The notes under the pieces: generated by a model
Database searches by the model: none
The model's input: the letters and a program-made list of their open reading frames with translations, nothing else
What the model was told of the DNA's origin: nothing
Shown here: piece by piece, positions 15,169-24,968 of the stretch
Numbering within the stretch: position 1 is the stretch's first letter
Layout of the letters: each line of letters begins with the position of its first letter
Position numbers and translations under genes: made by a program
Source of the DNA: Escherichia coli
GTDB taxonomy: Bacteria; Pseudomonadota; Gammaproteobacteria; Enterobacterales; Enterobacteriaceae
Assembly (NCBI RefSeq): GCF_022846255.1
Contig: NZ_AP025682.1
Direction: 5' to 3' (one strand)
Length of the DNA stretch: 64,000 nt

Positions 15169-17865
15169 TTACTGCCAACCGTAACGACGGCTATAGAACC
15201 CTTTCACCAACTGGGTTAACGTCATATACCCTGCCAGAATCGCAACCAGCCACGGGAAATAGCTTAACGGCAGCGCCTGCAGCTGCAGATAACTGGCCAG
15301 CGGTGAAAACGGCAATGCGATCCCGACAATCATCACGATCACGGTCATAATCATTAACGGCCACGATGCACAGCTCTGAATAAACGGTACACGACGGGTG
15401 CGGATCATATGCACAATCAGCGTTTGCGACAGTAAGCCCACCACAAACCAGCCCGACTGGAACAGCGTTTGCGTTTCCGGCGTGTTGGCATGGAATACCC
15501 ACCACATCAGGCAAAACGTCAGAATATCGAAAATCGAGCTGATCGGTCCGAAGAAGACCATAAAGCGCCCCAGATCCGCCGGATTCCAACGCTGCGGCTT
15601 TTGAATTTGCTCGTCGTCGACGTTATCAAATGGGATCGCCACCTGTGACACATCGTATAGCAGATTTTGAATAAGCAAGTGTAGCGGCAACATCGGCAGG
15701 AAGGGCAAGAAAGCACTCGCCACCAGCACGCTGAACACATTACCGAAGTTAGAGCTCGCCGTCATTTTGATGTATTTCAGCATGTTGGCGAAAGTGCGAC
15801 GTCCCTCAATAACCCCCTCTTCCAGCACCATCAGGCTTTTTTCCAGCAGGATGATATCAGCCGCTTCACGGGCAATATCTACCGCGCCGTCCACAGAAAT
15901 GCCGATATCCGCAGCGCGTAAGGCGGGCGCATCATTAATACCATCGCCCATAAAGCCAACCACATGCCCTTCGCGCTTCAGCAACGTTACGATGCGTTCT
16001 TTATGCATCGGCGTCAGACGAGCAAACAGCGTGGTGCGCTGTGCGAGATTTGCCAGTTCGTCGTCAGATAGCGTTTCAATATCACTACCAATGACCACCT
16101 CTCCCGCGTCCAGCCCCACTTCATGGCACACTTTCGCTGCAACTAACTCACTGTCGCCAGTAAGGATTTTTACGGTAATTCCACTCGCTTTTAATGCCTT
16201 CAGTGCCGGAGCGGTTGTCTCTTTTGGCGGATCAAGGAAAGCAATATATCCTTCGAGGATCAGGTCGGATTCATCCGCCCGCTGGTAATCTCCTTCACGC
16301 GCTGGCAGGTATTTCGTCGCCACCGCAACCACGCGCAGCCCCTGACGATTCAGCGTATCAGTAACCCGCTTAATCTTACGCAGCATGGTGTCATCGAGCG
16401 GTACAATCTCGCCATTGTGACGCACTTGCGAACACACATTGAGGATTTCCTGCAATGCGCCTTTGCAAACCAACTGATGGTGTTCGGTATTTTCTGCCAC
16501 AACCACCGACATCCGACGACGCTCGAAATCAAACGGAATCTCATCAATTTTTTGCCAACGGCTGGCCAGCGAGCGCGCTGACTCTTCATCCGTACCTTCG
16601 AGCACCGCTGTATCAAGCAGGTTTTTAAGCCCGGTCTGGTAATGGCTGTTCAACCACGCGCTATGCAGCACGCGTTCGCTAGTTTTACCGGAGATATCGG
16701 TATGATTCTCCAGCACAATTTTATCCTGTGTCAGGGTGCCGGTTTTATCAGTGCACAGAATATCCATTGCGCCAAAGTTCTGAATGGCATCCAGATGTTT
16801 GACGATCACTTTCTGTTTCGACAACTTGACTGCGCCACGCGCCAGCGTCGAGGTAACAATCATCGGCAACATTTCTGGCGTTAAGCCTACCGCGACCGAA
16901 AGCGCAAACAGTGCCGCTTCCCACCAGTCACCTTTGGTGTAACCGTTGATAAGCAACACCACCGGAGCCATCACCAGCATAAAGCGAATCAGCAGCATAC
17001 TGACGCGGCTAATCCCTTGCTGAAAGGCATTCGGCTCGCTTTCCTGCTCACTAACACGCCCCGCCAGTTGACCAAACCAGGTATTGGCACCTGTGGCAAT
17101 CACCATTGCTTGTGCCGTGCCGCTCACCACGGTGGTGCCCATAAAACACAGGGTGTCGCACTCCAGCGGATTGCTGTGCTCCGGCTGGCGAGTGGTAGCG
17201 GCTTTTTCCACGGGCAGAGACTCACCGGTTAACGACGCCTGAGCGACAAACAGATCCCGCGCCTGCAAGATACGTAAATCTGCCGGGATCATATCCCCCG
17301 CCGCCAGTTTTATAATATCGCCGGGCACCAGTTGGTCTATCGGGATTTCCAGCCAGCCATTTTCACCTTTATCGTTAATTACGCGCAGTACCGTCGCGGT
17401 ATTACTGACCATCGCTTTCAGGGCATCTGCCGCTTTGGTGGAACGAGCTTCCTGAATAAAGTTCAGCAACGTAGAAATAGCGACCATTAGCGCGATAACA
17501 CCTGCGGCAAATAAATCTTCCGTGGCGTAAGAAATAGCACCAAGAATGGTGAGCAAAATATTAAAGGGGTTGCGATAGCAGACCCATAAATGTACCCACC
17601 ACGGCGACGGTTGTTGTGCGGGTAATTTATTTTCACCATGTTGTTCGCGGGCAGATTCCACTTCCGCCAGATTTAACCCTTCCGGATGGGTGTCGAACGT
17701 TTTCCACAATTCTTCTTCGGGCATCACCGCCATTTTCAGGCAATGCGCACTTAAAGAAGGCGGGACCGCCGCATTCACTGTCTGCTGCGCGCCAGGCAAT
17801 GGATCACGATGAACCAGACGGGAAGGTAAATGGCGAATGAGCCGGGTAAAAATTTCTTTAAACAT
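15169..17865 (-). CDS. mgtA: Magnesium-transporting P-type ATPase
   Basis: 898-aa ORF with P-type ATPase DKTGTLT phosphorylation motif and GDGINDAPAL hinge motif. Confidence 0.96.
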   Translation of the reverse strand: MFKEIFTRLIRHLPSRLVHRDPLPGAQQTVNAAVPPSLSAHCLKMAVMPEEELWKTFDTHPEGLNLAEVESAREQHGENKLPAQQPSPWWVHLWVCYRNPFNILLTILGAISYATEDLFAAGVIALMVAISTLLNFIQEARSTKAADALKAMVSNTATVLRVINDKGENGWLEIPIDQLVPGDIIKLAAGDMIPADLRILQARDLFVAQASLTGESLPVEKAATTRQPEHSNPLECDTLCFMGTTVVSGTAQAMVIATGANTWFGQLAGRVSEQESEPNAFQQGISRVSMLLIRFMLVMAPVVLLINGYTKGDWWEAALFALSVAVGLTPEMLPMIVTSTLARGAVKLSKQKVIVKHLDAIQNFGAMDILCTDKTGTLTQDKIVLENHTDISGKTSERVLHSAWLNSHYQTGLKNLLDTAVLEGTDEESARSLASRWQKIDEIPFDFERRRMSVVVAENTEHHQLVCKGALQEILNVCSQVRHNGEIVPLDDTMLRKIKRVTDTLNRQGLRVVAVATKYLPAREGDYQRADESDLILEGYIAFLDPPKETTAPALKALKASGITVKILTGDSELVAAKVCHEVGLDAGEVVIGSDIETLSDDELANLAQRTTLFARLTPMHKERIVTLLKREGHVVGFMGDGINDAPALRAADIGISVDGAVDIAREAADIILLEKSLMVLEEGVIEGRRTFANMLKYIKMTASSNFGNVFSVLVASAFLPFLPMLPLHLLIQNLLYDVSQVAIPFDNVDDEQIQKPQRWNPADLGRFMVFFGPISSIFDILTFCLMWWVFHANTPETQTLFQSGWFVVGLLSQTLIVHMIRTRRVPFIQSCASWPLMIMTVIVMIVGIALPFSPLASYLQLQALPLSYFPWLVAILAGYMTLTQLVKGFYSRRYGWQ

Positions 17866-18130
17866 AAGGAGTCCCTCCGCACTGTCTGAAACAGTACAGA
17901 AATGTCTTCAGGCGTGGCGAAGCCTTACCTGAAGGTAATAAAGCTGAGCAGGGACGTTAAAACGTCACGGCCTTACGCATCCGGTAACGCCGTGAAAAGA
18001 CGGGCTTACCGGAAAAGTTTTAATCTCCGTCGAGGGAGAGGCGTGGGATCAGGTTCCATATAACCTCCGGTAAGTGAAAAAAGCGCCGCAAATAATAAGG
18101 AGAATCCAATAATATTCGTAGCATTTATGG
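17866..18130 (-). promoter_or_regulatory. mgtA 5' leader region (Mg2+/proline-responsive leader containing mgtL)
   Basis: ~260-nt untranslated interval between PhoP-box promoter and mgtA ATG, containing the proline-rich mgtL ORF. Confidence 0.6.
18006..18059 (-). CDS. mgtL: mgtA leader peptide MgtL (17 aa, proline-rich)
   Basis: Reverse complement encodes [17 protein letters not shown], inside mgtA leader. Confidence 0.85.
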
Positions 18131-18153
18131 CGATATAATACCTGCTGGCAACT

Positions 18154-18170
18154 AAACCAACGATAAACCA
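18154..18170 (-). promoter_or_regulatory. PhoP box of the mgtA promoter
   Basis: Plus strand TAAACC-aacga-TAAACC = minus strand GGTTTA-N5-GGTTTA direct repeat, with TATTAT -10-like hexamer ~12 bp downstream. Confidence 0.75.
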
Positions 18171-18243
18171 GACTTTACCCATTGCTGAATGCACAGGTAA
18201 AGTTAGGCTCAAATAATTAAACAACACGTTATGGGACAACAGG

Positions 18244-19191
18244 ATGCAAAATCGGCTGACCATCAAAGACATCGCGCGCTTAAGCGGCGTGGGGAAATCT
18301 ACGGTTTCCCGGGTGCTGAATAACGAAAGCGGCGTGAGCCAGCGCACGCGCGAGCGTGTTGAAGCAGTGATGAATCAGCATGGATTTTCCCCTTCCCGCT
18401 CTGCGCGCGCTATGCGTGGGCAAAGCGATAAAGTGGTCGCCATCATTGTTACCCGTCTGGATTCGTTGTCAGAAAATCTCGCCGTTCAAACCATGCTGCC
18501 AGCGTTCTATGAACAAGGTTACGATCCAATCATGATGGAAAGTCAGTTTTCCCCACAATTAGTTGCCGAACATTTGGGGGTGCTGAAACGGCGTAATATC
18601 GACGGCGTAGTGCTGTTCGGTTTTACCGGCATAACAGAAGAAATGTTAGCCCACTGGCAGTCATCGCTGGTTCTGCTGGCGCGTGACGCAAAAGGCTTTG
18701 CTTCGGTCTGTTATGACGACGAAGGGGCAATCAAGATCCTGATGCAACGGCTGTATGACCAGGGACATCGTAATATCAGCTATCTCGGCGTGCCGCACAG
18801 TGACGTGACGACCGGTAAGCGACGTCACGAAGCCTACCTGGCGTTCTGCAAAGCGCATAAACTGCATCCCGTTGCCGCTCTGCCAGGGCTTGCTATGAAG
18901 CAAGGCTATGAGAACGTAGCAAAAGTGATTACGCCTGAAACTACCGCGTTACTGTGCGCAACCGACACGCTGGCACTTGGCGCAAGTAAATACCTGCAAG
19001 AGCAACGCATCGACACCTTGCAACTGGCGAGCGTCGGTAATACACCGTTAATGAAATTCCTCCATCCGGAGATCGTCACCGTAGATCCCGGTTACGCCGA
19101 AGCTGGACGCCAGGCGGCCTGCCAGTTGATCGCGCAGGTCACCGGGCGCAGCGAACCGCAACAAATCATCATCCCCGCCACCCTGTCCTGA
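18244..19191 (+). CDS. treR: Trehalose operon repressor (LacI family)
   Basis: 315-aa ORF with N-terminal LacI HTH (TIKDIARLSGVGKSTVSRVLN). Confidence 0.94.
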   Translation: MQNRLTIKDIARLSGVGKSTVSRVLNNESGVSQRTRERVEAVMNQHGFSPSRSARAMRGQSDKVVAIIVTRLDSLSENLAVQTMLPAFYEQGYDPIMMESQFSPQLVAEHLGVLKRRNIDGVVLFGFTGITEEMLAHWQSSLVLLARDAKGFASVCYDDEGAIKILMQRLYDQGHRNISYLGVPHSDVTTGKRRHEAYLAFCKAHKLHPVAALPGLAMKQGYENVAKVITPETTALLCATDTLALGASKYLQEQRIDTLQLASVGNTPLMKFLHPEIVTVDPGYAEAGRQAACQLIAQVTGRSEPQQIIIPATLS

Positions 19192-19230
19192 TCGTTTCCC
19201 GAACGATAAATTGTGATCTTCGCTGTGTTT

Positions 19231-19244
19231 CGGGAACGTTCCCG
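19231..19244. promoter_or_regulatory. Perfect palindrome in treR-treB spacer (candidate TreR operator and/or treR terminator stem)
   Basis: cgggaacgttcccg followed by TTTTT; related half-site cgtttcccgaacg ~30 bp upstream. Confidence 0.45.
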
Positions 19245-19309
19245 TTTTTAAATTTTTCCGCGCAATATATTCTGCAGCCAACCAAAAATGTCATCTGCCA
19301 TGGGGCTTT

Positions 19310-20731
19310 ATGATGAGCAAAATAAACCAAACGGATATCGATCGGTTGATTGAAATGGTCGGCGGGCGCGGCAATATTGCGACGGTGAGCCACTGTATTA
19401 CTCGCCTGCGCTTTGTCCTCAACCAACCGGCCAATGCCAGACCGAAAGAAATTGAGCAACTCCCCATGGTGAAAGGCTGTTTCACCAATGCCGGGCAATT
19501 TCAGGTGGTGATTGGCACCAACGTGGGTGATTACTATCAAGCACTGATTGCGTCAACCGGACAGGCGCAGGTTGATAAAGAGCAGGTAAAAAAAGCCGCC
19601 CGGCAGAATATGAAATGGCATGAGCAGTTGATCTCTCATTTCGCGGAGATCTTCTTCCCATTGCTGCCCGCGTTGATTAGTGGTGGTTTGATCCTCGGTT
19701 TTCGCAATGTGATCGGCGATTTGCCCATGAGCAACGGTCAGACGCTGGCGCAAATGTACCCTTCCCTGCAAACGATCTACGATTTTCTGTGGTTGATCGG
19801 TGAAGCGATCTTCTTCTACCTGCCGGTCGGGATTTGCTGGTCAGCGGTGAAAAAAATGGGTGGTACACCGATCCTCGGTATCGTGCTTGGCGTAACGCTG
19901 GTTTCTCCACAGCTGATGAACGCTTATCTGCTCGGGCAGCAGCTGCCGGAAGTATGGGACTTTGGCATATTCAGCATCGCCAAAGTGGGCTATCAGGCGC
20001 AGGTCATCCCGGCACTGTTAGCCGGACTGGCGCTGGGCGTTATTGAAACTCGTCTTAAGCGCATCGTGCCGGATTACCTCTATCTGGTGGTGGTGCCCGT
20101 CTGTTCGCTGATCCTCGCGGTGTTCCTCGCCCATGCGCTGATTGGTCCGTTTGGTCGCATGATTGGCGATGGCGTTGCCTTTGCGGTACGTCACCTGATG
20201 ACCGGCAGCTTTGCTCCGATTGGCGCGGCATTGTTTGGCTTCCTGTACGCCCCGCTGGTGATCACCGGCGTACACCAGACCACGCTTGCTATTGATTTGC
20301 AGATGATTCAAAGCATGGGTGGCACGCCAGTGTGGCCGCTGATTGCGCTGTCGAATATTGCTCAGGGCTCCGCCGTGATAGGTATTATCATTTCCAGCCG
20401 CAAGCACAATGAACGCGAGATCTCCGTGCCTGCCGCTATCTCCGCCTGGCTTGGAGTCACTGAGCCTGCTATGTACGGCATCAACCTGAAATATCGCTTC
20501 CCGATGCTGTGCGCGATGATTGGTTCTGGTCTGGCAGGATTGCTATGCGGCCTGAACGGCGTTATGGCGAATGGCATCGGCGTAGGCGGCCTGCCGGGAA
20601 TTCTCTCGATTCAGCCGAGCTACTGGCAGGTGTTTGCGCTGGCAATGGCTATCGCCATCATCATCCCGATTGTACTCACCTCGTTTATCTATCAGCGGAA
20701 ATACCGCCTGGGCACGCTGGACATTGTTTAA
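19310..20731 (+). CDS. treB: PTS trehalose-specific EIIBC component
   Basis: 473-aa ORF, N-terminal EIIB cysteine motif (VSHCITRLRF) plus polytopic EIIC. Confidence 0.94.
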   Translation: MMSKINQTDIDRLIEMVGGRGNIATVSHCITRLRFVLNQPANARPKEIEQLPMVKGCFTNAGQFQVVIGTNVGDYYQALIASTGQAQVDKEQVKKAARQNMKWHEQLISHFAEIFFPLLPALISGGLILGFRNVIGDLPMSNGQTLAQMYPSLQTIYDFLWLIGEAIFFYLPVGICWSAVKKMGGTPILGIVLGVTLVSPQLMNAYLLGQQLPEVWDFGIFSIAKVGYQAQVIPALLAGLALGVIETRLKRIVPDYLYLVVVPVCSLILAVFLAHALIGPFGRMIGDGVAFAVRHLMTGSFAPIGAALFGFLYAPLVITGVHQTTLAIDLQMIQSMGGTPVWPLIALSNIAQGSAVIGIIISSRKHNEREISVPAAISAWLGVTEPAMYGINLKYRFPMLCAMIGSGLAGLLCGLNGVMANGIGVGGLPGILSIQPSYWQVFALAMAIAIIIPIVLTSFIYQRKYRLGTLDIV

Positions 20732-20739
20732 TTTTCTTC

Positions 20740-20757
20740 GGGGCGCAATTGCGCCCC
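20740..20757 (+). other. Intercistronic perfect 18-bp palindrome between treB and treC (possible mRNA stem-loop)
   Basis: ggggcgcaattgcgcccc; no T-run follows, treC ATG 24 bp downstream. Confidence 0.5.
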
Positions 20758-20780
20758 CTCGCATTTGCAGGAATAACGTA

Positions 20781-22436
20781 ATGACTCATCTTCCCCACTG
20801 GTGGCAAAACGGCGTTATCTACCAGATTTATCCAAAGAGTTTTCAGGACACCACGGGTAGCGGCACCGGCGATTTACGTGGCGTTATCCAACGCCTGGAC
20901 TATCTGCATAAACTGGGCGTTGATGCCATCTGGCTAACCCCCTTTTATGTCTCTCCCCAGGTCGATAACGGTTACGACGTAGCGAATTATACGGCGATTG
21001 ATCCCACCTATGGCACGCTGGACGATTTTGACGAACTGGTGACACAGGCAAAATCGCGTGGGATTCGTATCATTCTCGATATGGTGTTTAACCATACCTC
21101 TACCCAACATGCCTGGTTTCGCGAGGCGCTGAACAAAGAAAGCCCTTACCGCCAGTTTTATATCTGGCGCGATGGAGAACCAGAAACGCCACCGAACAAC
21201 TGGCGTTCAAAATTCGGTGGTAGTGCGTGGCGCTGGCATGCAGAAAGCGAACAGTACTATTTGCATCTCTTTGCACCAGAACAGGCGGATCTCAACTGGG
21301 AGAATCCAGCGGTACGCGCAGAGCTGAAAAAAGTCTGTGAGTTCTGGGCCGATCGTGGGGTCGACGGGTTGCGCCTGGATGTGGTGAATCTGATCTCCAA
21401 AGATCCGCGTTACCCTGAAGACCTGGATGGCGACGGGCGTCGCTTCTATACCGACGGGCCACGAGCACACGAGTTTTTGCACGAGATGAACCGCGATGTG
21501 TTTACGCCACGCGGGTTAATGACCGTAGGTGAAATGTCCTCCACCAGCCTTGAGCATTGCCAGCGATACGCGGCACTGACAGGCAGTGAATTGTCGATGA
21601 CCTTTAATTTTCATCACCTGAAGGTCGATTATCCCGGAGGTGAAAAATGGACGCTGGCTAAACCTGACTTTGTGGCGTTGAAAACATTGTTCCGCCACTG
21701 GCAACAAGGAATGCACAACGTGGCATGGAATGCCTTGTTCTGGTGTAACCACGATCAGCCGCGCATTGTTTCTCGCTTTGGTGATGAAGGTGAATACCGC
21801 GTGCCTGCGGCAAAAATGCTGGCGATGGTGCTGCATGGCATGCAGGGAACGCCGTATATCTACCAGGGCGAAGAGATTGGCATGACCAACCCACATTTCA
21901 CGCGCATTACTGACTATCGCGACGTGGAGAGCCTCAATATGTTTGCCGAGCTGCGCAACGATGGGCGTGATGCCGACGAGTTATTGGCAATCCTCGCCAG
22001 TAAATCCCGTGACAACAGTCGCACACCCATGCAATGGACCAACGGCGATAATGCCGGGTTTACGGCTGGCGAACCGTGGATTGGCCTGGGCGATAACTAT
22101 CAGGAAATCAACGTAGAAGCAGCGCTGGCCGATGAGTCCTCGGTGTTTTACACCTACCAAAAGTTAATCGCACTGCGTAAGCAAGAAGCCGTCCTGACAT
22201 GGGGCGATTACCAGGATCTGCTGCCAAACAGCCCTGTATTGTGGTGCTATCGCCGTGAGTGGAAGGGGCAAACCTTGCTGGTCATTGCCAACCTTAGCCG
22301 TGAGACCCAACCCTGGCAGCCAGGGAAAATGCTCGGCAACTGGCAGCTTGTGATGCATAACTACGAAGAAGCCTCACCACAACCCTGTACCATGACTTTA
22401 CGGCCTTTTGAGGCTGTCTGGTGGTTACAGAAGTAA
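20781..22436 (+). CDS. treC: Trehalose-6-phosphate hydrolase (GH13)
   Basis: 551 aa from ATG at 20781 (MTHLPHWWQNGVIYQIYPKSF); track ORF starts 49 codons upstream. Confidence 0.93.
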   Translation: MTHLPHWWQNGVIYQIYPKSFQDTTGSGTGDLRGVIQRLDYLHKLGVDAIWLTPFYVSPQVDNGYDVANYTAIDPTYGTLDDFDELVTQAKSRGIRIILDMVFNHTSTQHAWFREALNKESPYRQFYIWRDGEPETPPNNWRSKFGGSAWRWHAESEQYYLHLFAPEQADLNWENPAVRAELKKVCEFWADRGVDGLRLDVVNLISKDPRYPEDLDGDGRRFYTDGPRAHEFLHEMNRDVFTPRGLMTVGEMSSTSLEHCQRYAALTGSELSMTFNFHHLKVDYPGGEKWTLAKPDFVALKTLFRHWQQGMHNVAWNALFWCNHDQPRIVSRFGDEGEYRVPAAKMLAMVLHGMQGTPYIYQGEEIGMTNPHFTRITDYRDVESLNMFAELRNDGRDADELLAILASKSRDNSRTPMQWTNGDNAGFTAGEPWIGLGDNYQEINVEAALADESSVFYTYQKLIALRKQEAVLTWGDYQDLLPNSPVLWCYRREWKGQTLLVIANLSRETQPWQPGKMLGNWQLVMHNYEEASPQPCTMTLRPFEAVWWLQK

Positions 22437-22621
22437 ATCTTCGCTAAGCCCCGGTAATGCCTGTCATTCCGGGGTTTTGCCTGTCAGTATGTTGTTTTTG
22501 TTGATTTTATAATCAAAAAATTCATTAAAAAATTTACATATCGCTGTAGCGCCCGTCATCCGTACGCTCTGCTTTTTACTTTGAGCTACATCAAAAAAAG
22601 TTCAAACATCCTTGATGCAAA

Positions 22622-22669
22622 GCACTATATATAGACTTTAAAATGCGTCCCAACCCAATATGTTGTATT
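22622..22669. promoter_or_regulatory. Two NrdR-box-like palindromes upstream of nrdD
   Basis: gcACTATATATAGact and cCCAATATGTTGTatt, centres 32 bp apart; TATAAT hexamer just downstream. Confidence 0.5.
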
Positions 22670-22829
22670 AATCGACTATAATTGCTACTACAGCTCCCCA
22701 CGAAAAAGGTGCGACGTTGTGGATAAGCGGATGGCGATTGCGGAAAGCACCGGAAAACGAAACGAAAAAACCGGAAAACGCCTTTCCCAATTTCTGTGGA
22801 TAACCTGTTCTTAAAAATATGGAGCGATC

Positions 22830-24968
22830 ATGACACCGCATGTGATGAAACGAGACGGCTGCAAAGTGCCGTTTAAATCAGAGCGCATCAAAGAAGCGAT
22901 TCTGCGTGCAGCTAAAGCAGCGGAAGTCGATGATGCCGATTATTGCGCCACTGTTGCTGCGGTTGTCAGCGAGCAGATGCAGGGCCGCAACCAGGTGGAT
23001 ATCAATGAGATCCAGACCGCAGTTGAAAACCAGCTGATGTCGGGGCCATACAAACAACTGGCTCGTGCTTACATCGAGTACCGTCACGATCGCGACATTG
23101 AACGTGAAAAACGCGGTCGCCTGAACCAGGAGATCCGTGGTCTGGTCGAGCAGACCAACTCCTCGTTACTCAACGAAAACGCCAACAAAGACAGCAAGGT
23201 GATTCCAACCCAGCGCGACCTGCTGGCCGGGATCGTGGCTAAACACTATGCACGCCAGCACCTGCTGCCGCGTGACGTGGTGCAGGCACATGAACGTGGT
23301 GATATTCACTATCACGATCTCGATTACTCACCGTTCTTCCCGATGTTCAACTGCATGTTGATCGACCTGAAAGGCATGCTGACCCAGGGCTTTAAAATGG
23401 GGAACGCCGAGATTGAACCGCCGAAATCGATCTCTACGGCAACCGCGGTAACTGCGCAGATTATTGCTCAGGTCGCCAGCCATATTTATGGCGGCACCAC
23501 CATTAACCGTATCGATGAAGTGCTGGCACCGTTTGTCACCGCCAGCTACAACAAACATCGCAAGACCGCAGAAGAGTGGAACATCCCGGACGCCGAAGGC
23601 TACGCTAACTCTCGTACCATCAAAGAGTGCTACGATGCCTTCCAGTCGCTGGAGTACGAAGTAAACACCCTGCACACCGCCAACGGTCAAACACCGTTTG
23701 TGACCTTTGGTTTTGGTCTGGGCACCAGCTGGGAGTCGCGCCTGATTCAGGAATCTATCCTGCGTAACCGTATCGCCGGCCTCGGTAAAAACCGTAAAAC
23801 GGCGGTGTTCCCGAAACTGGTGTTTGCGATTCGCGATGGCCTGAACCATAAAAAAGGCGATCCGAACTACGACATCAAACAGCTGGCGCTGGAGTGCGCA
23901 AGCAAGCGCATGTATCCGGATATCCTTAACTACGATCAGGTAGTGAAAGTCACCGGTTCGTTTAAAACCCCGATGGGCTGCCGCAGCTTCCTCGGCGTGT
24001 GGGAAAATGAAAACGGCGAGCAGATCCACGATGGTCGTAACAACCTCGGCGTGATCAGCCTGAACCTGCCGCGTATTGCTCTGGAAGCAAAAGGCGATGA
24101 AGCCACCTTCTGGAAGCTGCTGGATGAACGTCTGGTGTTGGCACGTAAGGCGCTGATGACCCGTATCGCTCGTCTCGAAGGCGTGAAAGCGCGCGTAGCC
24201 CCGATCCTCTATATGGAAGGCGCTTGTGGCGTGCGTCTGAATGCTGACGACGACGTTTCTGAAATCTTCAAAAACGGTCGTGCGTCTATTTCGCTGGGTT
24301 ACATCGGCATCCACGAAACCATTAACGCGCTGTTCGGCGGCGAGCATGTTTACGACAACGAGCAGCTGCGCGCGAAAGGTATTGCGATTGTTGAGCGTCT
24401 GCGTCAGGCGGTGGATCAGTGGAAAGAAGAAACTGGCTACGGTTTCAGCCTCTACAGTACACCGAGTGAGAACCTGTGCGACCGCTTCTGCCGTCTCGAT
24501 ACCGCTGAGTTTGGCGTGGTGCCGGGCGTGACCGATAAAGGTTACTACACCAACAGTTTCCACCTCGATGTGGAGAAGAAGGTGAACCCGTACGACAAGA
24601 TCGACTTTGAAGCGCCTTACCCGCCACTGGCGAACGGTGGCTTCATTTGCTATGGCGAGTATCCAAACATTCAGCACAACCTGAAGGCGCTGGAAGATGT
24701 CTGGGATTACAGCTATCAGCATGTACCGTATTACGGCACCAACACACCGATCGATGAATGCTACGAGTGTGGCTTTACCGGCGAATTTGAGTGCACCAGC
24801 AAAGGCTTCACTTGTCCGAAATGTGGTAACCATGACACCTCCCGTGTGTCGGTGACTCGCCGCGTGTGCGGATATTTAGGTAGCCCGGATGCACGTCCGT
24901 TTAACGCTGGTAAGCAGGAAGAAGTTAAGCGCCGCGTTAAACATTTGGGAAATGGGCAGATAGGTTAA
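22830..24968 (+). CDS. nrdD: Anaerobic ribonucleoside-triphosphate reductase
   Basis: 712-aa ORF with C-terminal Zn-finger cysteines and glycyl-radical motif RVCGYLG. Confidence 0.95.
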   Translation: MTPHVMKRDGCKVPFKSERIKEAILRAAKAAEVDDADYCATVAAVVSEQMQGRNQVDINEIQTAVENQLMSGPYKQLARAYIEYRHDRDIEREKRGRLNQEIRGLVEQTNSSLLNENANKDSKVIPTQRDLLAGIVAKHYARQHLLPRDVVQAHERGDIHYHDLDYSPFFPMFNCMLIDLKGMLTQGFKMGNAEIEPPKSISTATAVTAQIIAQVASHIYGGTTINRIDEVLAPFVTASYNKHRKTAEEWNIPDAEGYANSRTIKECYDAFQSLEYEVNTLHTANGQTPFVTFGFGLGTSWESRLIQESILRNRIAGLGKNRKTAVFPKLVFAIRDGLNHKKGDPNYDIKQLALECASKRMYPDILNYDQVVKVTGSFKTPMGCRSFLGVWENENGEQIHDGRNNLGVISLNLPRIALEAKGDEATFWKLLDERLVLARKALMTRIARLEGVKARVAPILYMEGACGVRLNADDDVSEIFKNGRASISLGYIGIHETINALFGGEHVYDNEQLRAKGIAIVERLRQAVDQWKEETGYGFSLYSTPSENLCDRFCRLDTAEFGVVPGVTDKGYYTNSFHLDVEKKVNPYDKIDFEAPYPPLANGGFICYGEYPNIQHNLKALEDVWDYSYQHVPYYGTNTPIDECYECGFTGEFECTSKGFTCPKCGNHDTSRVSVTRRVCGYLGSPDARPFNAGKQEEVKRRVKHLGNGQIG

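Follow-up and report, generated by a model that had tools for sequence, protein, structure and literature searches.

Introduction

Stem-loops between the cistrons of an operon have been described in several bacterial systems. In Escherichia coli, REP stem-loops in the malE-malF intercistronic region of the malEFG operon were reportedly described by Newbury, Higgins and co-workers in 1987. In the puf operon of Rhodobacter capsulatus (pufBA versus pufLMX), intercistronic hairpins stop the 3′ decay of the upstream segment. The rplL-rpoB and gltI-sroC-gltJ junctions carry internal partial terminators or attenuators with recognisable U-tracts. ERIC elements likewise reside in transcribed intercistronic spacers and fold into RNA stem-loops. 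Moreover, many steady-state RNA termini of E. coli are defined by stable stem-loops that lack U-tracts and shield the transcript from PNPase/RNase II (Dar & Sorek 2018, PMC6061677).

Here, we describe the stem-loop at the treB-treC junction in a stretch of 64,000 nucleotides of E. coli DNA (assembly GCF_022846255.1, contig NZ_AP025682.1), which is called the window in the following. Like the malE-malF element, it is a stable stem-loop that separates the first two cistrons of an operon for sugar uptake, with an upstream-only mRNA 3′ end at the stem, and by analogy the likeness may extend to protection against 3′ exonucleases and an excess of the proximal transport component over the products of the distal genes. 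Unlike the malE-malF element, the treB-treC stem is an 18-nt perfect hairpin that bears no similarity to the REP consensus and is present once in the window. With puf, it would share an intercistronic hairpin that makes the segments of one mRNA differ in stability; puf, however, belongs to an unrelated organism, has larger structures and is a case in which experiments have established that the downstream part decays through RNase E. Among the marks of the malE-malF/puf type, a position between co-transcribed cistrons, a selected RNA structure and an upstream-only 3′ end were found at treB-treC.

The rplL-rpoB and gltI-sroC-gltJ junctions resemble treB-treC in having a hairpin after the promoter-proximal gene and a shorter abundant transcript together with read-through, but the tail that follows the treB-treC hairpin in E. 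coli is CUCGCAUUU in place of a recognisable U-tract. We know of no small RNA from the treB-treC junction. ERIC elements are mobile, exist in many copies and measure about 70-127 nt, whereas the treB-treC element has 18 nt, is present once in the window and is vertically inherited. The stem-loops of Dar & Sorek (PMC6061677) are likewise stable, with reduced U after the stem and a precise steady-state 3′ end directly downstream; however, the ends in that study close transcription units and follow Rho-dependent termination, whereas the treB-treC stem lies inside an operon, the RNA downstream of it encodes treC and no Rho region is listed for it. The treB-treC hairpin is neither REP nor ERIC, and in E. 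coli it lacks the U-tract of an intrinsic terminator. Judged by these analogies, it is most likely an uncharacterised protective intercistronic stem-loop of the malE-malF/puf and Dar & Sorek class.

The literature search returned no paper on the hairpin, its conservation or its function, and no half-life, Northern or mutant data for the locus. The 3′ end at this site is already public in two supplementary tables.

Materials and methods

The TreC scan, carried out with the window's TreC as the query and one genome per species, gave 80 Enterobacteriaceae loci with TreC identities of 79-95%. A total of 71 distinct spacers were aligned, and the addition of a Klebsiella pneumoniae spacer from the plasmid collection brought the set to 72 distinct spacers. 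Pairing and covariation were tested on 56 distinct 32-mers with 500 shuffles. In the 61-nt strings of PMC7815308, the 3′ end is position 51; this convention was checked on sgrS, where it falls on the last U of the U8 tail, and a second check was provided by the coordinates of the treC stop and terminator, which agree with each other.

Since whole chromosomes are filed as plasmids in PLSDB, chromosomal treBC loci could be retrieved from it, and mislabelled chromosomes and megaplasmids of this plasmid collection served as outgroups. Several PLSDB 'plasmid' records of 4.8-5.4 Mb, including NZ_AP026896.1, CP125156.1, NZ_CP134663.1 and others, are evidently whole chromosomes. The protein search for distant TreC relatives returned close relatives only. 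A 941-aa TreB-TreC fusion protein was found among the protein matches.

Results and discussion

Layout and fold of the treB-treC junction

The genes around the site are arranged in the order mgtA (minus strand), mgtL with the Mg riboswitch, treR, treB, treC and nrdD, and the features of the junction are listed in Table 1. The first-pass annotation had pointed to an 18-bp palindrome at 20740-20757 in the treB-treC gap, and this proved correct: GGGGCGCAATTGCGCCCC equals its own reverse complement. It is located 8 nt past the treB stop and 23 nt ahead of the treC start, within a spacer of 49 nt. The sequence 3′ of it is CUCGCAUUUGCAGGAAUAACGUAAUG, and the first 9 nt past the stem (CUCGCAUUU) contain four U, with one U in the first four positions. 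The treB-treC site was not called in the consensus terminator scan of the sequence, and the scan for promoter-like sites between treB and treC found none. The Shine-Dalgarno sequence of treC is left free by the hairpin, and its A-G-G is invariant in the alignment of 71 distinct spacers.

Table 1. Coordinates of the features at the treB-treC junction, numbered along the window.
Feature	Position	Strand	Basis or detail
treB, PTS trehalose EIIBC, 473 aa, upstream cistron	19310..20731	+	ORF translation; RefSeq annotation of the identical K-12 locus
treB stop TAA	20729-20731	+	
Pyrimidine-rich tract UUUUCUUC, treB stop to hairpin	20732..20739	+	Spacer comparison
RNA hairpin	20740..20757	+	5′ arm GGGGCGC 20740-20746, loop AAUU 20747-20750, 3′ arm GCGCCCC 20751-20757
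Zone of mapped RNA 3′ ends	20758..20773	+	PMC7815308 Supp. file 1 (LB 0.4), PMC10687069 Supp. file 4
Candidate RNase E site G-C|A-U-U, cut after 20762	20761..20765	+	Match to RN|WUU consensus, predicted
treC Shine-Dalgarno AGGA	20769..20772	+	11 nt after the stem, 8 nt before ATG
treC, trehalose-6-phosphate hydrolase, 551 aa, downstream cistron	20781..22436	+	ATG 20781-20783
Canonical intrinsic terminator of the operon, GCCCCGG ... CCGGGG UUUUG	22448..22480	+	Sequence; 3′ end in both maps

As RNA, the palindrome folds into a 7-bp all-G-C stem with a 4-nt AAUU loop at -16.1 kcal/mol (z = -3.9 against shuffles), and this hairpin accounts for 96% of the ensemble. Under a first-order Markov model, 0.33 perfect palindromes with arms of at least 9 are expected per 64 kb and two were seen in the window; the bare palindrome is therefore only mildly unusual. 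The chance of such a palindrome inside a given 49-nt spacer, obtained by arithmetic from the Markov expectation, is about 2.5e-4, and it is the position in a short spacer together with the conservation that gives the element its significance.

The hairpin has one exact copy in the 64-kb window, with near matches at chance level, and each E. coli genome contains the 61-nt spacer a single time. As an 18-nt perfect hairpin, it is devoid of the REP motif, which is an imperfect palindrome of the GCCGGATG... type with a consensus of ~35 nt. Membership in a repeat family was considered and is not supported by the window, which contains no further copies beyond chance.

Within E. coli, a 221-nt segment around the site was found in 5,423 of 5,426 complete genomes, and strains such as NC101 match it at 100% identity. 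Of 5,409 E. coli genomes, 4,195 have exactly the same 61-nt spacer and the others a version with 95-99% identity; K-12 departs from the window solely by T to C at window position 20766. In E. coli O145:NM FWSEC0002, a deletion fuses the treB end to internal treC sequence (3072-3083 in the locus), by which the spacer and the hairpin are lost; both treB and treC are annotated as pseudogenes in this strain.

Conservation of the stem across Enterobacteriaceae

A perfect stem of at least 6 bp is kept in 71 of the 72 distinct spacers, with a mean of -15.9 kcal/mol; the exception is Leclercia sp. 29361, which has one C-A mismatch. The loops, on the other hand, vary both in length (3-6 nt) and in sequence, with AGUU in 25, CGUU in 7, ACUU in 5 and AAUU in 4 of the 72 spacers, in addition to GAAA, GCUG, ACCC and others. 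What is conserved is a 7-bp G+C stem with a freely varying loop, and the perfect 18-bp symmetry is incidental. Because the self-complementary AAUU is found in so few spacers, the perfect palindrome of E. coli is an accident of its loop, and the emphasis placed on perfect palindromy in the first-pass annotation was misdirected: a 7-bp stem closed by any tetraloop is the conserved element.

In the covariation test on the 56 distinct 32-mers, 99.0% of the stem cells were paired and double compensatory changes were found at three of the seven pairs, including C-G to U-A in Citrobacter gillenii as well as G-C to C-G and C-G to A-U or G-C in Buttiauxella. None of the 500 shuffles matched this pairing and compensation, and slid registers pair in 46-79% of cells. 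Two G-U intermediates were observed in the stem (E. albertii and MAG CTSoil), and the outer four G-C pairs showed no variation in this set. Column entropy is 0.15-0.19 bit in the stem, whereas the loop reaches about 1.1, the flanks 1.0-1.3 and four-fold degenerate sites about 1.3, and the mean codon entropy of treB is 0.95; synonymous sites, loop and flanks are saturated while the stem is near invariant. Since the stem shows both purifying selection and compensatory changes, the hairpin is a functional RNA structure under strong purifying selection; the pattern marks a hairpin selected as RNA or as a single strand. A small RNA or structure in the 3′ coding end of treB was also considered and rejected: with values of 0.85-1.0, synonymous diversity in this part gives no signal over the gene mean of 0.95.

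The tract between the treB stop and the stem is 5-15 nt long and consists of 90% pyrimidine and 65% U over the 72 spacers; its composition is kept and its sequence drifts. Sequestration of the treC Shine-Dalgarno by this tract was tried as a candidate role and rejected, the mean pairing probability being 0.18 versus 0.32 for shuffled tracts, with values above 0.5 in 9 of 71 spacers. The explanations tried leave the always pyrimidine-rich 5′ tract and the four invariant outer G-C pairs without account.

The 9-nt tail past the stem contains from 2 to 8 U across the 72 spacers, with a mode of 5 U among the relatives. Canonical tails were found in Enterobacter sp. Bisph1 (UUCUUUUUU), Trabulsiella (CUUUUUUAG) and Klebsiella michiganensis (CCUUUUUUG), and the Salmonella tail has 2 U in 9 with the stem still intact. 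The earlier statement that the palindrome is not a classical terminator holds for the E. coli sequence, which has no U-tract, but it cannot be generalised across the family, because the tails of many relatives are U-rich, with up to 8 U in 9.

In Citrobacter sp. Res13-Sevr-PEB04-36, an in-frame TAA lies in treB 31 nt ahead of the usual stop (about 2414-2445 in the locus), so that the last ~10 treB codons are untranslated in this assembly; its hairpin is intact in the GGGGTGC/GCACCCC variant.

RNA 3′ ends mapped at the hairpin in vivo

Two published 3′-end maps of E. coli K-12 (LB, OD 0.4) contain an RNA 3′ end at the junction. In MG1655 grown in LB to OD 0.4, a 3′ end at 4464728 on the minus strand, with 425,606 average Term-seq reads, is listed as 'primary' for treB (Adams et al. 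2021, eLife, PMC7815308). This end corresponds to window position 20762, 5 nt past the stem, in the context ...UUUUCUUCGGGGCGCAAUUGCGCCCCCUCG[C]AUUCGCAGGA. The 3′ end of the treC terminator at 4463010 has 64,109 Term-seq reads (PMC7815308), which gives a ratio of 6.6:1 between the treB-treC end and the operon terminator, a comparison of steady-state ends and not of fluxes. In the TRS study (Nat Commun 2023), an E. coli terminus at 4464717-4464732 with its peak at 4464726 is classed as 'Alternative primary in TU' for treB, with corrected p-values of 6.7e-211, 1.3e-150 and 8.9e-180; the local statistic is 0.973 at treB-treC versus 0.954 at the treC terminator, the latter being classed as 'Primary' (PMC10687069). 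The TRS peak corresponds to window position 20764, 7 nt past the stem. The hairpin marks a major RNA end in vivo: the two maps place the dominant end 5-7 nt past the stem, and an abundant treB-only RNA therefore has the hairpin as its 3′ end.

The tre operon is presumably little expressed in LB at OD 2.0 and in M63-glucose. The treB-treC 3′ end is absent from the sheets for these two conditions, and the treB and treC entries all stand in the LB 0.4 rows (PMC7815308). No treB or treC entry is present among the 1,078 Rho regions of the same study, absence from this list being weak evidence. The supplement of the ProQ paper holds no entry for the locus.

The junction in other lineages

In the two Erwiniaceae, Pantoea soli and Duffyella gerundensis, the spacers of 16-18 nt carry no hairpin, and none is present in Bacillus thuringiensis (B. 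cereus group) and Listeria, whose spacers are 13 and 18 nt long. In Cetobacterium, the two genes overlap. Aeromonas caviae has an unrelated hairpin, GGCGGAGCC-CUG-GCUCCGCC followed by CUUUAUCGUU, directly past the treB stop (2413-2460 in the locus), and in Clostridium butyricum the stretch past treP (2055-2100 in the locus) forms a 13-bp A+U hairpin with CUUUUAAAU behind it. Both tails are fairly U-rich. Going by the sequences compared, a stem-loop at the transporter-treC junction appears to be recurrent and not universal, and the Aeromonas and Clostridium hairpins suggest convergent placement at the same junction.

Buttiauxella gaviniae and B. brennerae are without the GGGGCGC hairpin and carry in the spacer an ERIC-like imperfect palindrome of 164 or 118 nt (2337-2500 in the B. 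gaviniae locus and 2383-2500 in that of B. brennerae), the core of which, CAGGAGCTTACTAAAGTAAGTGACTGGGGTGAGCG, matches the E. coli ERIC. Other Buttiauxella species have kept the hairpin with an altered stem, GGGGCCA/TGGCCCC or GGGGCCG/CGGCCCC.

Processing, termination and other readings of the hairpin

On balance, we favour the reading that the hairpin is an RNA stem-loop which forms, through processing, the protected 3′ end of an abundant treB-only message and thereby raises treB over treC. RNA polymerase would mostly pass the hairpin and make treBC mRNA, because there is no U-tract. The treC part would then be cut or decay, and the treB part would survive because the 7-bp G+C stem would block the 3′-to-5′ exonucleases PNPase and RNase II. 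The end could be generated by two routes: exonucleases might trim a decaying or downstream-cut treBC RNA back to the stem, or RNase E might cut directly at GC|AUU, 5 nt past the stem. Either way, translatable treB message would exceed treC message and transporter would exceed hydrolase; by analogy with the systems described above, a longer-lived treB mRNA and an excess of TreB over TreC are to be expected.

The second route is suggested by the in vivo consensus of RNase E, RN|WUU (Chao et al. 2017, PMC5222698). G-C|A-U-U matches it in full and coincides exactly with the mapped end, from which we infer cleavage. Past the stem, 44 of the 72 spacers carry the motif, with 37 cases at +5, where shuffles predict 16.9, an excess that is inflated by shared ancestry; the motif is also short, and it is missing in Salmonella and Klebsiella. 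The RNase-protective stem-loop that had been proposed in the first-pass annotation is thus supported in part, by the dominant in vivo 3′ ends at +5/+7 and by the selection on the stem with its compensatory changes.

Leaky termination is the strongest rival. The hairpin would act as a leaky intrinsic terminator or internal attenuator at which a fraction of polymerases is released 5-8 nt downstream, so that treB is transcribed more than treC; the weak U-tract would set the read-through, and the stop codon 8 nt upstream might let the ribosome modulate folding of the hairpin. Its stem and loop are indistinguishable from those of terminator hairpins, and the 3′ end at +5 to +7 resembles those of canonical terminators in the same Term-seq dataset, which lie +4 to +8 past the stem, so the +5/+7 position is common to termination and processing. 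The tails are U-rich in most relatives and fully canonical in several, whereas a pure exonuclease barrier would not need U, and the hairpins of Aeromonas caviae and Clostridium butyricum are followed by CUUUAUCGUU and CUUUUAAAU at the same junction. In addition, terminators can drift between types via U content (Dar & Sorek 2018, PMC6061677).

Against termination in E. coli, the tail in the window and in K-12 is CUCGCAUU(U/C), which has one U in the first four positions and forms a G+C-rich hybrid. A low-U tail with a G+C-rich hybrid gives little polymerase release. Moreover, the consensus scan did not call the site, the TERMITe intrinsic-terminator supplements hold no treB entry (in itself weak evidence), and the Salmonella stem is intact in front of 2 U in 9. 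Among the hallmarks of an intrinsic terminator, the stem-loop and the 3′ end are present at the E. coli site, and the U-tract of ~7-8 nt is absent. Leaky termination is more plausible in the relatives with U-rich tails than in E. coli, for which we regard it as a possible but distinctly less probable origin of the end, and exonuclease trimming or an endonuclease cut as the somewhat probable one. We infer that the E. coli 3′ end comes from processing rather than termination. The product is shared by both processing routes and by leaky termination, namely a treB mRNA whose stop codon is intact and whose 3′ end carries the hairpin.

A role of the hairpin chiefly in treC expression is improbable. 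In such a role, it would either form a stabilising stem-loop at the 5′ end of a treC message processed by a cut in the U-rich tract upstream, or serve as an insulator or standby platform through which treC is translated independently of treB. Although RN|WUU is also matched at the stop codon by UAA|UUUU, and U-rich tracts are present on both sides of the stem, which would bring them beside the Shine-Dalgarno, the abundant end maps to the 3′ side of the hairpin, which leaves the stem on the treB RNA. Furthermore, RN|WUU occurs in the 5′ tract at chance level (35 observed versus 33.7 expected), and the tract pairs weakly with the Shine-Dalgarno, without any advantage over shuffled tracts.

We hold it similarly doubtful that the hairpin and its U-rich flanks constitute a regulated setter of the ratio, or that the stable treB 3′ fragment is itself a regulatory RNA. 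Cleavage or termination at the junction would then be modulated, for instance, by the ribosome terminating 8 nt upstream, by ProQ or Hfq, or by osmolarity; ProQ or Hfq would recognise the U-rich tract together with the 3′ hairpin, and TreB:TreC, hence trehalose-6-phosphate, would be tuned.

A feature at the DNA level, that is, a dyad site for a dimeric protein or a cruciform, would fit the perfect 18-bp dyad symmetry in E. coli, yet it is very improbable. A dyad protein-binding site is argued against because the half-sites change with pairing kept (GGGGTGC/GCACCCC, GGGGCCA/TGGCCCC, GGGGCCG/CGGCCCC and GGGCGCGG/CCGCGCCC) and the arm spacing changes as well, from 3 to 6 nt; the G-U wobble variants of E. 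albertii and MAG CTSoil pair as RNA but break the DNA symmetry, and the RNA 3′ end maps beside the element. A chance palindrome or neutral relic without function is hardly credible, for although such palindromes are not very rare (0.33 expected per 64 kb) and Erwiniaceae, the Bacillus cereus group and Listeria lack a hairpin at the junction, the stem is near invariant across genera with saturated synonymous sites, carries compensatory changes, is identical or near-identical in 5,409 E. coli genomes and is adjoined by a dominant RNA end.

Possible consequences for the tre operon

TreC hydrolyses trehalose-6-phosphate, the inducer that inactivates or releases TreR. Since TreC destroys this inducer, keeping TreC below TreB would possibly favour induction, and for the same reason the element may influence how induction proceeds and, at high osmolarity, keep futile breakdown of the biosynthetic intermediate in check. 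Should the processing reading hold, treBC would be more than a plain two-gene message, with a treB-only RNA dominating, and the ratio of transporter to hydrolase would be set post-transcriptionally by an 18-nt element kept throughout the history of the Enterobacteriaceae. The transcription-unit annotation of this textbook PTS operon should gain an internal 3′ end. The natural variants, in which the same stem is followed by tails of 2 to 8 U, offer a test set for the drift between protective and terminating stem-loops, and the series also includes the ERIC-like replacement in two Buttiauxella, the lack of a hairpin in Erwiniaceae and the unrelated hairpins in Aeromonas and Clostridium. The effect would be real but ordinary fine-tuning of an operon, by which general principles are unchanged.

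Neighbouring elements in the window

The second of the two perfect palindromes in the window is the 24-bp AAGGCCGGAGCATGCTCCGGCCTT at 4656-4679, preceded by GAAAACG and followed by TTTATTT. It sits between the convergent ORFs 1783-4638 (+) and 4685-5872 (-) and looks like a canonical bidirectional intrinsic terminator, in contrast to the treB-treC hairpin.

An Rfam scan over positions 17800-23000, with E up to 10, gave no match at the hairpin. Its sole match was the Mg2+ riboswitch in the mgtL leader upstream of mgtA (window 17959-18074, minus strand; RF01056, 125.8 bits), which is expected at this locus.

The treR-treB spacer contains a 14-bp palindrome, CGGGAACGTTCCCG, at 19231-19244, which is followed by TTTTT and was terminator-like in the scan, and a related half-site, TTTCCCGAACGATAA, is located just upstream of it (19196-19210). 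From its sequence and position, the 19231-19244 palindrome is probably the TreR operator and/or the treR terminator.
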